Positions 45,315 to 58,374 of a stretch of DNA of 64,000 bases are shown in pieces. A program made the position numbers and the translations under genes. How positions within the stretch are numbered: the first letter of the stretch is position 1; every line of letters starts with the position of its first letter. Source of the DNA: an uncultured Poribacteria bacterium (lineage in GTDB: Bacteria > Poribacteria > WGA-4E > WGA-3G); NCBI GenBank assembly GCA_951813565.1, contig OX638351.1:4928001-4992000 (forward strand), read 5' to 3'. A model generated the notes under the pieces. The model was not told the DNA's origin. It saw only the letters and a list, made by a program, of their open reading frames with translations, and did no database searches.

Positions 45315-45347
45315 GCAGAAATTTCCTTAGTGAACTATGAACACTCT

Positions 45348-45755
45348 GTCATAGGTACCCACTACCTAAAGGTAGGGGCTTGTGCTTCCTCGCGACTGCG
45401 GTTTTCGCTTAGCGTCCACCGTCTTAGTGTCGCTCCACTTTAGGCAGCCAAGCCCGCCTGTTTGATTTGTTTTTCGCAATGTCGTGGGTTGGCTCTGTTT
45501 CCACCCATTTTATAGCTGCCCTTTCTACCAGGCACGCCACGCGACAAGTCCTTAGACTTCGGGAGGGGGTGCCTCCGCTCACGCATTCCAGTCTGCATTA
45601 CTGCAGTAGCTTGATATGGACGCTATCCACCAACTTTATAGATTTCGTTATAGCGATGGGTTTTATTCCGCTTTCGCTGGACATTTTGTGATGTCCATCA
45701 CATTGTTAGCCGTGGAAATCCCACAAGCTAAAGCATGGGGATTTGACGGGGAGTG
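45348..45755 (-). mobile_element. Non-autonomous IS200/IS605-like element with structured omega-RNA-like body, copy 1
   Basis: Inverted copy of 57928-58334; subterminal hairpins at both ends; no TSD; TTTAA immediately upstream on the minus strand. Confidence 0.75.
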
Positions 45756-46163
45756 TTAAACTATAGAACCTTATGAGAATAAGGAAACATTTCTATGAGT
45801 TAATCCCACATTCCGCAGTTGTTTAATCAGAATTTAATATTTATAGGACAAACCCGTGTCACGAAAGGATCCGTACCGGATAATAGAGATTTGGTGCCGT
45901 GAATTAAGATTCCACTTGTCACTTTTCTTTTTCTCTAATTCACCTGAAATTGCTTGCTCGATGTAGGTGCCACGCAGGTTTGAGAAATAAATATCGAAAA
46001 TCGGAAATTCGAAGTGCGGAATGTAGGGTTAATGCGTTAGTAGTCGCACAATTCATTGTGCCTCTTTTTGTAGGAGCGAGCTCCAGCTAGCGACCTTATG
46101 ATAAAACTGTAGACCACTTTGTAAACACAGCGAACGACACTGTATTATGAATTGTAGAATCTA

Positions 46164-56616: not shown

Positions 56617-57927
56617 ATGGAATCTTCAACCGAATTAGTCAACAAACTTAGACATCTTGTTGAGGAGTCTTGTATCCTGCAGGGGGATCAGGTATCGGCT
56701 TATACTTACGACAGCATAGTTCCTGAAGTAGTTGTCCTGCCTGCCTCTGTCCAAGAGATGCAAAATGTTCTTCAGTTTGCATCAGCACATGATTATACCG
56801 TTATGCCCGCAGGTGCGGGGACAAAACTCGGAGTCGGCAACTTACCACCGAAAACGGATATAGTGTTGGCAACGACTCATCTAAACAGTGTGGTGGAATA
56901 TGAACCTGCTGATTTGACCGTAACTGTAGAAGCAGGTATTCGGTTAGCCGATCTACAAACTGATTTAGCGAAACATCGGCAATTTTTTCCGTTAAATCCA
57001 CCTTATGGGAACAGATGTACTATCGGAGGGATTGTTGCTACAAATGCCAGTGGCCCACTTCGTCTTCAATATGGAACTGCAAGAAATTTGGTCTTAGGTA
57101 TGCACGTCGTGCACGCCAATGGTACAGTCGTAAAGAGTGGTGGTAAAGTCGTTAAAAATGTCGCAGGATACGATCTTAACAAACTTTATATCGGTGCTTT
57201 TGGAACGCTCGGTATTATCACTGAAGTAACGCTCAAATTAGCACCGCTACCTGCACGTCAGGCGATTGTTGCTGCGCAGTTTCAAAACGTTCAAGATGCA
57301 GTTAATACTGGATTGTGTATAGTCAGTTCACAGACGCTACCAACATTTGTAAATCTATGCACAAATTTGTGTATTGACCAATTTTCGGATAGAAAACCGA
57401 CATTAATAGTCGGATTTGGTGGAGATTCTGATACTGTAACATGGCAACTCAACTCAGCGCAATCACTTGTGGAACAAAACGGTGCTTTAGGTGTGCAAAT
57501 TATTGAAGGGGAATCGCAAGAAAGTATCAGTCATTTTATTCAGGAATTTTCTACGGTTGATAAGGCAACCGATACCGCGACCGTAAAGGTTAATCTCAAG
57601 CGGACAGATATCGCAGAATTTGCTGAGATAGCATTGGAAGTTACAGATAAGATGATGGCACTGTTAGGAAATGGTGTCCTTTATCTAAAAATAACATCAG
57701 ATTCTGATACCGATTTACAAGAACTTGCAAACACACTAACGGAGCTACGTCAAAATGCTGTAGATGCAGGAGGCAACCTAATCATAGAGGCTGCACCACC
57801 TGAACTCAAACGGCAGATAGATGTGTGGGGTTCCATTGGTAGCACTCTCAACTTGATGAAACAGGTTAAGGCAAAGTTTGATGGTGGTAGTGTATTGAAC
57901 CCCGGACGTTTTGTTTCAGGTATTTAG
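56617..57927 (+). CDS. glcE: FAD-binding oxidoreductase, glycolate oxidase GlcE-like
   Basis: YEPADLTVTVEAG, GGKVVKNVAGYDL, LNPGRF. Confidence 0.85.
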   Translation: MESSTELVNKLRHLVEESCILQGDQVSAYTYDSIVPEVVVLPASVQEMQNVLQFASAHDYTVMPAGAGTKLGVGNLPPKTDIVLATTHLNSVVEYEPADLTVTVEAGIRLADLQTDLAKHRQFFPLNPPYGNRCTIGGIVATNASGPLRLQYGTARNLVLGMHVVHANGTVVKSGGKVVKNVAGYDLNKLYIGAFGTLGIITEVTLKLAPLPARQAIVAAQFQNVQDAVNTGLCIVSSQTLPTFVNLCTNLCIDQFSDRKPTLIVGFGGDSDTVTWQLNSAQSLVEQNGALGVQIIEGESQESISHFIQEFSTVDKATDTATVKVNLKRTDIAEFAEIALEVTDKMMALLGNGVLYLKITSDSDTDLQELANTLTELRQNAVDAGGNLIIEAAPPELKRQIDVWGSIGSTLNLMKQVKAKFDGGSVLNPGRFVSGI

Positions 57928-58334
57928 CACTCCCCGTCAAACCCCCTGCCTTTAGGTAGGGGATGTCCACGGCTAATGATGTGATGGACAGCACGAAATG
58001 TCCAGCGAAAGCGGAATAAAACCCATCGCTATAACGAAACCTATAAAGTTGGTGGATAGCGTCCATATCAAGCCACTGCAGCACTGCAGACTGGAATGCG
58101 TGAGCGGAGGCACCCCCTCCCGAAGTCTAAGGACTTGTCGCGTGGCGTGCCTGGTAGGAAGGGCAGCTGTGAAATGGGTGGAAAGATAGCCAACCCACGA
58201 CATTGCGAAAAACAAATCAAACAGGCGGGCTTAGCCGCCTAAAGTGGAGACACTATAAGACGGTGGACGCTAAGCGAAAACCGCAGTCGCGAGGAAGCAC
58301 AAGCCCCTACCTTTAGGTAGTGGGTACCTATGAC
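57928..58334 (+). mobile_element. Non-autonomous IS200/IS605-like element with structured omega-RNA-like body, copy 2
   Basis: GTCAAACCCCCTGCCTTTAGGTAGGGG left hairpin; AAGCCCCTACCTTTAGGTAGTGGG..TGAC right end; preceded by TTTAG. Confidence 0.75.
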
Positions 58335-58374
58335 ACCCTAACATCAAGCACGCATTGAAAAGGGAGATCATAAC

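Follow-up and report, generated by a model that had tools for sequence, protein, structure and literature searches.

The DNA stretch analyzed here (64,000 nucleotides [nt]; hereafter, the window) comprises positions 4,928,001 to 4,992,000 of contig OX638351.1 from the assembly GCA_951813565.1 of an uncultured Poribacteria bacterium and contains two copies of a small, gene-less element with transposon ends of the IS200/IS605 type. Copy A, a 407-nt IS605-family element assignable to the palindrome-associated transposable elements (PATEs), occupies positions 57928..58334 on the plus strand, immediately after the stop codon of a glcD/glcE-like oxidase gene and upstream of a gene for a PorX-type response regulator. 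Copy B, which is 408 nt long and has a TTAA-type left end (left guide sequence [GL] AAAT), is located at 45348..45755 on the minus strand, between yraN and a nucleotidyltransferase gene; both copies have the same orientation as the neighboring genes. The two copies are 93.4% identical over 408 nt, and the other traits listed for them in a first-pass annotation of the window hold as well: copy A is preceded by TTTAG, which spans the glcE-like stop codon, and copy B by TTTAA; both terminate with TGAC; and their 3' flanks are unrelated. No credible open reading frame (ORF) is present, the longest stop-to-stop frame being 87 codons in the window copies and 98 codons in other copies, and frame-breaking indels separate relatives of the element, which supports the absence of a protein gene. 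Judged by its sequence, this small protein-free element of sponge-symbiont Poribacteria carries an ordinary TnpB guide RNA (omega-RNA) behind a conserved, intricately folded RNA of ~230 nt that matches no catalogued family.

The source genome (G000) contains eight full copies of 407-417 nt at unrelated sites, which imply mobility of the element; the 13 matches to the conserved RNA in this genome consist of these eight, one copy with an internal deletion, and four elements that belong to a longer family. Nucleotides 1-58 and 289-407 of the element match 24 elements larger than 1 kb in the same genome, most of which are tnpB-only elements of ~1365 nt, with four elements of ~1752 nt encoding both tnpA and tnpB. 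The partner genes sought behind these ends do exist, intact tnpA and tnpB both being found in the source genome: the element at G000:228258 encodes a 141-amino acid (aa) TnpA, which scores above the curated cut-offs of transpos_IS200 and Y1_Tnp in a profile search, and a 375-aa TnpB, with 225.8 bits against guided_TnpB (cut-off 100) and with the D, E and D motifs of RuvC recognizable by eye in the translation. In the element at G000:4320891, tnpA is frameshifted near its end. The left end of copy A (57928..57972, plus strand), of a kind common to tnpB elements, includes GL AAAC (57939-57942) followed by a TTTA-loop hairpin (57943-57962). TTTA-loop hairpins are indeed present at both ends of the element, the left hairpin of copy B being a different, imperfect palindrome.

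The target of copy A is the tetranucleotide TTAG at 57924..57927 (plus strand), located outside the element and including the glcE-like stop codon; this is the left cleavage site (CL) as well as the predicted core of the transposon-associated motif of TnpB. For copy B, the target is TTAA (45756..45759, minus strand). The pentanucleotide TTTAR, initially proposed as the conserved motif, precedes seven of the eight core-bearing copies in this genome; however, only the 4-mer TTAR is conserved, considering that the tnpB elements with the same ends (22 of 24 scored) follow TTTAG (11), ATTAG (6), CTTAG (2), GTTAG (2) or TTTAA (1), the fifth base being T in 12, A in six, C in two and G in two. The transposase target is TTAR, set by the left-end guide, and the 5-mer TTTAR predicted as the TnpB motif is not supported. 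In the source genome, CL and GL are paired as TTAG-AAAC in 28 of 38 elements and as TTAA-AAAT in eight, with the last base of GL complementary to the last base of the target. Among 73 core-bearing elements that we collected, the corresponding combinations are TTAA-AAAT in 29 of 29 and TTAT-AAAA/AAGA in 28 of 39 (nine other, two unparsed), and those of the right cleavage site (CR) with the right guide sequence (GR) are TGAC-CAAG in 29 of 36 and TCAA-GAAT in 31 of 31. The reported lack of target duplication is borne out by empty sites with a gap of 0 in the source genome for two relatives from other genomes (L023 and L011), which place the insertion 3' of TTAA and confirm the element boundaries; no clean orthologous empty site was found for the other elements among the 73 from outside the source genome.

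These ends resemble those of IS608 from Helicobacter pylori, in which GL AAAG is matched with CL TTAC and GR GAAT with CR TCAA (PMC5934647). Shared features are the subterminal hairpins, the 4-nt target recognized via the left guide and the lack of target duplication, and the GR/CR combination of IS608 is identical to that of the long family described here (31/31). Unlike IS608, the present elements use the targets TTAG, TTAA and TTAT with the guides AAAC, AAAT and AAAA, the short family combines CR TGAC with GR CAAG, and no genes are present. The ends, the target rule, the empty sites and the copies all agree with the identification as a mobile, ORF-less IS200/IS605 element. We regard as almost certain that this is an element with IS605 ends and matching GL/CL and GR/CR, inserted without a scar 3' of TTAR, that ends of this kind also flank intact tnpA and tnpB genes elsewhere in the genome, and that its omega-RNA is nearly identical to that of a co-resident TnpB. 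At the site of copy A, relatives of ~80% identity that lack the element offer no clean empty version, because ~75-290 other bases separate the stop codon of the glcE-like gene from the flank that forms the guide of copy A, and the insertion at window positions 57928-58374 may have accompanied a local deletion. A metagenome contig (L149) carries the copy A sequence (the 3' two-thirds of the element together with the 3' flank).

The 3' end of the element was described as TnpB-type over ~110 nt, and its last 119 nt do consist of a tnpB tail, an omega-RNA and the right end, with a guide derived from the flank. In copy A, the omega-RNA scaffold and right end span 58216..58334 on the plus strand, with GR CAAG at 58300-03, a hairpin at 58304-24 and CR TGAC at 58331-34, and translation of the tail reveals a tnpB remnant, namely, the last eight codons and the stop (58216-58242, plus strand). 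Over these 119 nt, copy A shares 94% identity with the tnpA-tnpB element G000:4320891, to which the equivalent part of copy B (45348..45466, minus strand) is 97% identical; over the eight full copies, identity to co-resident tnpB elements is 94-100%. The predicted guides are the 3' flanks at 58335..58354 (plus strand) for copy A and 45328..45347 (minus strand) for copy B, a role suggested by TnpB biology (PMC10691335). The first 16 nt of each guide occur once in the genome, as expected for self-homing. TnpB normally cuts the guide out of its own mRNA, and AmaTnpB trims the 5' sequence of RNA supplied in vitro, leaving a 106-nt scaffold (PMC10278001), to which the 119-nt part retained here is close in length. 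Gene-less elements that supply omega-RNA in trans have already been described as PATEs and standalone omega-RNA elements (Meers et al., 10.1101/2023.03.14.532601; Altae-Tran et al., PMC10691335). Like the present elements, these combine IS605 ends with a right-end omega-RNA and a flank-derived guide, and PATEs rely on TnpA and TnpB in trans. PATEs are described there as minimal; in contrast, the elements analyzed here contain, in place of tnpB, a covarying, pseudoknotted RNA of ~230-350 nt that is found across two genera and several end types.

This core RNA lies between the left end and the omega-RNA (57977-58208, plus strand, in copy A; 45474..45705, minus strand, in copy B) and is ~230 nt long, extending to ~350 nt in relatives. 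An alignment of the short family (A5; 23 distinct sequences, 69-98% identity, mean 80%) yielded a model of 61 base pairs in 14 helices, with 98.3% of the cells paired, against 32-40% for slid controls, and with compensatory changes at 18 of the 61 pairs, a value reached by none of 500 shuffles, although both controls are generous and significance is overstated given that the structure was derived from the same 23 sequences, which are related. In this covariation analysis, one of the checks that the first-pass annotation called for, the interior of the element behaves as a structured RNA. G-U cells far outnumber A-C cells in the core pairs (159 vs 9), an excess that identifies the plus strand as the RNA strand.

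The 5' module (57977..58029, plus strand) consists of an H-type pseudoknot (57980-83/57992-95 and 57986-90/57999-58003) and a stem (58005-08/58026-29); two stems of this module contain three and two compensatory pairs, and the pseudoknot helix is nearly invariant, with one compensatory pair discerned by eye in variant L238. The main domain (58048..58208, plus strand), with covariation across the short and divergent families, contains hairpin A (58052-66), the loop of which pairs with 58099-101, hairpin B (58073-94), hairpins E and F (58106-36), hairpin C with a near-invariant GGUAGRAA loop (58144-68) and hairpin D (58175-97). The domain is closed by pseudoknot helix b (58138-41/58205-08), all four pairs of which are compensatory once divergent families are included, and, tentatively, by helix a (58048-51/58198-201); a further tentative pairing, c, connects 58067-69 with 58153-55 inside the GGUAGRAA loop. 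Four helices cross others, namely, the 5' H-type pseudoknot, the pairing of the hairpin A loop with a strand, the tentative GGUAGRAA-loop pairing and helix b. In the 3' half, 10 of 16 pairs are compensatory across divergent families. For lack of any compensatory pair in A5, helices a and E, loop pairing c and the 5' pseudoknot are considered tentative. In single-sequence folding, the core alone is no better than shuffles (z -1.3), and the whole element is (z -3.65). Of the stems originally listed by eye, GGACA/TGTCC is supported, but GATGGAC/GTCCAT and TGTCG/CGACA are not conserved pairings: the former pairs at its first two positions in only 10 of 23 sequences and joins segments that come from two separate hairpins, each of which covaries, whereas the latter, which combines parts of two separate pseudoknot helices, has one position that fails to pair in 13 of 23. 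From the pattern of substitutions, we consider it highly probable that the core maintains one fold on the strand of the omega-RNA and is selected for structure. Bacterial RNAs of such size with several pseudoknots are uncommon and are often ribozymes or ribonucleoprotein scaffolds.

Searches against known RNA families did not yield an identity for the core. Rfam 15 produced no matches in the window at the gathering threshold; the best match over the core was RT-19 (12.9 bits, E 8.3, cut-off 78), variants of the core gave nothing above noise at gathering or E-value thresholds, and Rfam ribozymes and riboswitches did not match the core at E<=10. The ~290-nt body of the element had been likened to HEARO, the omega-RNA of IscB and IsrB, with which it shares the presence of a structured RNA of about 200 nt within IS200/IS605 ends, as well as a short word resemblance to the HEARO consensus near the 3' end of the core. 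This proposal did not survive: the HEARO model (RF02033) detects no core copy even at E<=10, its sole match in the genome being the single iscB locus (56 bits); the core model reaches at most 11.6 bits (E 1.6) on 29 Poribacteria iscB/isrB loci with filters off; and hidden Markov models of the core match none of 30 such loci. Moreover, the right end delimits the IscB omega-RNA (Meers, 10.1101/2023.03.14.532601), and the isrB leaders inspected in Poribacteria begin with an end hairpin in the reverse-complement sense, so that, contrary to the premise that IscB/HEARO RNA occupies the left end, such an RNA is not expected downstream of the left end on the strand of the core. In the HEARO and IscB-IsrB layout, the RNA starts at the transposon end, upstream of iscB or isrB, and has a 5' guide; the core, by contrast, starts some 50 nt in from the end of the element and precedes a TnpB omega-RNA, and no iscB or isrB gene follows any of the cores inspected. 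An origin of the core as an IscB, IsrB or HEARO omega-RNA appears extremely improbable.

A large structured RNA located between the left end and the omega-RNA, on one transcript inside transposon ends, is also found in IStrons, which combine IS605 or IS607 elements with a group I intron (10.1101/2023.11.20.567912), and the core could, by this analogy, be a self-splicing intron that hides the insertion from host mRNAs. The Rfam group I and group II intron models match neither the window nor the variants of the core, and the core stops short of the element boundaries. Group I introns need a terminal G, and the present elements end in C or A. Furthermore, insertions inside genes are nearly absent: none of six tested core copies in the source genome lies within a gene, compared with five of 22 tnpB elements, and the overall counts are 0 of 40 short and two of 33 long elements. 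Splicing is accordingly a very unlikely function of the core. Group II introns, cobalamin riboswitches, signal recognition particle RNA, and hepatitis delta virus-like and pistol ribozymes were rejected on motif order or topology and for lack of an Rfam match. The class of the element is known, and the core RNA is, by these model searches, outside the Rfam 15 families; no description of it was found in the literature covered, which excluded subscription papers and bioRxiv supplements.

Covariance models of the core were run on Poribacteria alone, other taxa being covered by exact patterns and blastn. The 5'-half and 3'-half models match 25 and 27 of the 151 genomes of the phylum, respectively, and the union, after the two weakest matches (G096 and G120), which lacked an element context, were dropped as chance, amounts to 26 of 151 genomes from two of 22 genera, all in one family. 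A 3' model built without the 550-570-nt family still finds that family, with up to 41 bits. An exact-pattern search of genome contigs retrieved 65 loci, all from Candidatus Poribacteria, and one pattern detected two loci in metagenome contigs, both from the same family; three DNA patterns had no matches in viral contigs (exact patterns being blind to distant relatives), and blastn against plasmids and phages returned chance matches only. In the matches inspected, every intact core belongs to an element without ORFs and is followed by a right end of the omega-RNA kind, of which there are at least three types (TGAC, TCAA and TCAC); 23 core matches did not fit the end-finding patterns. The linker between helix b and the omega-RNA is 3-7 nt long in 70 of 71 cases measured (of 73 elements), and the spacer between the left end and the core is 9-35 nt (63 measured), longer where a sigma-70-like promoter intervenes. 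The truncated core forms seen, lacking one part, are single copies, whereas multi-copy lineages keep the whole core. In genome G031, near-identical cores are joined to two different omega ends, each 96-100% similar to a co-resident tnpB element. The core could not be explained as a decayed tnpB coding sequence, lacking, outside the ends, any similarity to tnpA and tnpB of the tnpB elements in the source genome.

Several loci document rearrangements around the core. At G000:C1:2994597-2996920 (L031, L147), copies of one duplicated upstream flank precede a long-family and a short-family element that are separated by 2 kb; the latter bears the TTAT-type left end of the long family, which amounts to a left-end swap. 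Two core elements of G031 (L008 and L025) follow a sequence resembling the interior of an unrelated 404-nt family (described below) and are preceded by CTAA instead of TTAA, which points to nesting or to a left part of chimeric origin. In one genome (L048, L052, L058, L087, L088 and L099), small repeats repeatedly interrupt the core and its leader, apparently in loops, and could map the positions tolerated by the fold.

A sigma-70-like promoter was recognized by eye just upstream of the core in variants L037, L134, L238 and L281; in L037 and L238, the -10 box precedes the 5' pseudoknot by 12-13 nt, so that the RNA start would fall at the 5' pseudoknot module. Parts of the stretch are present in 15 sequencing runs recorded as RNA, and in a comparison of four of these, from four studies, contigs extend across the core in three (depth 12-58) and across the omega region in all four, with low or no cover of most of the flanking genes; these contigs come from related strains and a multi-copy element, with possible DNA carry-over, and show presence rather than strand, ends or level, and regions without cover do not count as non-expression. 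These data bear on the possibility that the fold acts not as RNA but in the single-stranded DNA during peel-and-paste transposition, where it would space the ends or make them more compact, or that it is a relic in slow decay. TnpA does act on the structured strand, and several interiors that are similar in size but unrelated in sequence are mobile with the same ends. Nevertheless, long-range pseudoknots show compensatory changes even between families whose helix sequences are unrelated, and these changes, the promoter-bearing variants and the RNA-library cover all make a DNA-level or relic origin of the fold improbable.

We propose that the core is a cis-acting 5' leader of the omega-RNA precursor, functioning at the RNA level, and assign this reading a probability of roughly 40-45%. 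It is suggested because a gene-less element has no tnpB mRNA, the core occupies the place of the latter at a nearly fixed distance from the omega-RNA, and it does so with several omega-RNA types. By what is known of the family, TnpA supplied in trans would move the element by peel-and-paste; a transcript consisting of the core, the omega scaffold and the 3' flank guide would load TnpB in trans; and the loaded TnpB would cut the empty donor site (TTAR plus guide), restoring the element. Serving as 5' leader where related elements have the tnpB mRNA, the core would shield the 5' end of the guide or promote its maturation, or else help to capture TnpB from the mRNA of another element, and such a role would give the gene-less element a retention advantage. 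The question raised is how gene-less IS605 elements make guide RNA and win the nuclease without a tnpB mRNA of their own, and these elements offer a natural covarying RNA module fixed 5' of an omega-RNA, natural deletion and insertion variants, and cognate TnpA and TnpB in the same genome. If the 5' module boosts the stability or loading of the omega-RNA, it would be useful for TnpB editing tools.

Several observations weigh against the leader proposal, in addition to the generous controls, the tentative helices and the single-sequence folding of the core described above. In a sample of 30 of about 180 tnpB matches used for this comparison, the omega ends of G009 and G006 are just 72-82% similar to the best co-resident tnpB ends, and no co-resident tnpB match to the omega end was recovered in G020. 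The window copies have no sigma-70-like site on the plus strand and would need read-through, and the core is uncovered in one (X10) of the four RNA-recorded runs. Co-orientation with host genes is not stronger for core copies (seven of eight) than for tnpB elements (18 of 24); orientation bias was therefore discarded as a sign of expression, the GC skew also being too irregular for replichore assignment. The fixed 3' linker could merely be an inherited junction. Finally, an unrelated 404-nt leader family amplifies with the same ends, which indicates that this particular core fold is not required for mobility.

A stronger version of the leader proposal, which we consider possible but doubtful, is that the core exemplifies a new class of large RNAs that contain several pseudoknots and have an activity of their own, either self-processing or the recruitment of TnpB or another protein; the core would replace the tnpB mRNA, be swapped between omega families and make the guide competitive. 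If so, guide biogenesis would have been outsourced to a swappable RNA module, and a second unrelated leader family would make this design general. About equally doubtful is the main rival of the leader proposal, in which the core is an independent RNA gene carried as IS605 cargo, such as a ribozyme, a ligand- or protein-binding RNA or an addiction-type RNA, which would be freed by TnpB trimming, the omega-RNA serving just for homing. The four pseudoknots and the near-invariant loop and junction bases exceed what protection of an RNA end would call for, the core stays constant while the ends and omega parts around it change, as with the two omega ends of G031, and some variants have their own promoter. 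Conversely, no stand-alone copy of the core was present among the matches inspected, the distribution is patchy (26/151 genomes, one family), and, as noted above, Rfam contains no ribozyme or riboswitch that matches the core at E<=10. Nor is there notable complementarity to tnpA or tnpB, the longest stretch being 9 nt compared with a shuffled mean of 8.6, and antisense action on these genes was rejected on the same grounds.

The tight 3-7-nt junction also fits another arrangement, in which a different effector would be served by a single long guide RNA made up of the core and the omega scaffold and would use the same 3' guide, much as Cas12f has 5'-extended trans-activating CRISPR RNAs. The full-length 3' part of the 550-570-nt family, of which tnpB elements share the last ~50 nt, is likewise found only in gene-less elements. 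However, the omega part of the short family is 94-100% identical to that of ordinary TnpB in the source genome, the TnpB-like genes have their own ends in the cases examined, and no orphan effector was seen, the one candidate, a 550-aa TnpB-like ORF, having its own, different ends. We therefore view a dedicated effector as unlikely.

The source genome contains further elements of related build. The 404-nt ORF-less family has five identical copies (G000:C1:2117809, 2551437, 4520876, 4652131 and 4700827; L104) and a diverged copy near 5295840, and is also represented by L243; its members have the same ends as the core-bearing elements, with an unrelated interior that lies behind an internal sigma-70-like promoter and has no Rfam match. 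An interior related to that of the 404-nt family is joined to a different omega-RNA type in G144, and this interior may be a second conserved leader RNA. A 447-nt ORF-less element at G000:C1:963509-963955 (L105) has a promoter, a third unrelated interior and a TCAC-type right end common to another tnpB family. The only iscB of the genome (519 aa) is located at G000:C1:2828760-2830800 (L001), with a HEARO-like RNA and two CRISPR-like repeats upstream. The 550-codon TnpB-like frame is present in three copies (G000:C1:1649056, 2156589 and 3270070; L291) with its own non-IS605 ends, and these elements are presumably of the IS607 type. In a tnpB element at G000:C1:2821929-2824390, an extra transposase-like frame of 353 codons is inserted between the left end and tnpB. 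At the opposite extreme of size, a 46-nt minimal element at G000:C1:918764-918809, located after TTAG and ending with TGAC, consists of left and right ends fused via a shared hairpin.

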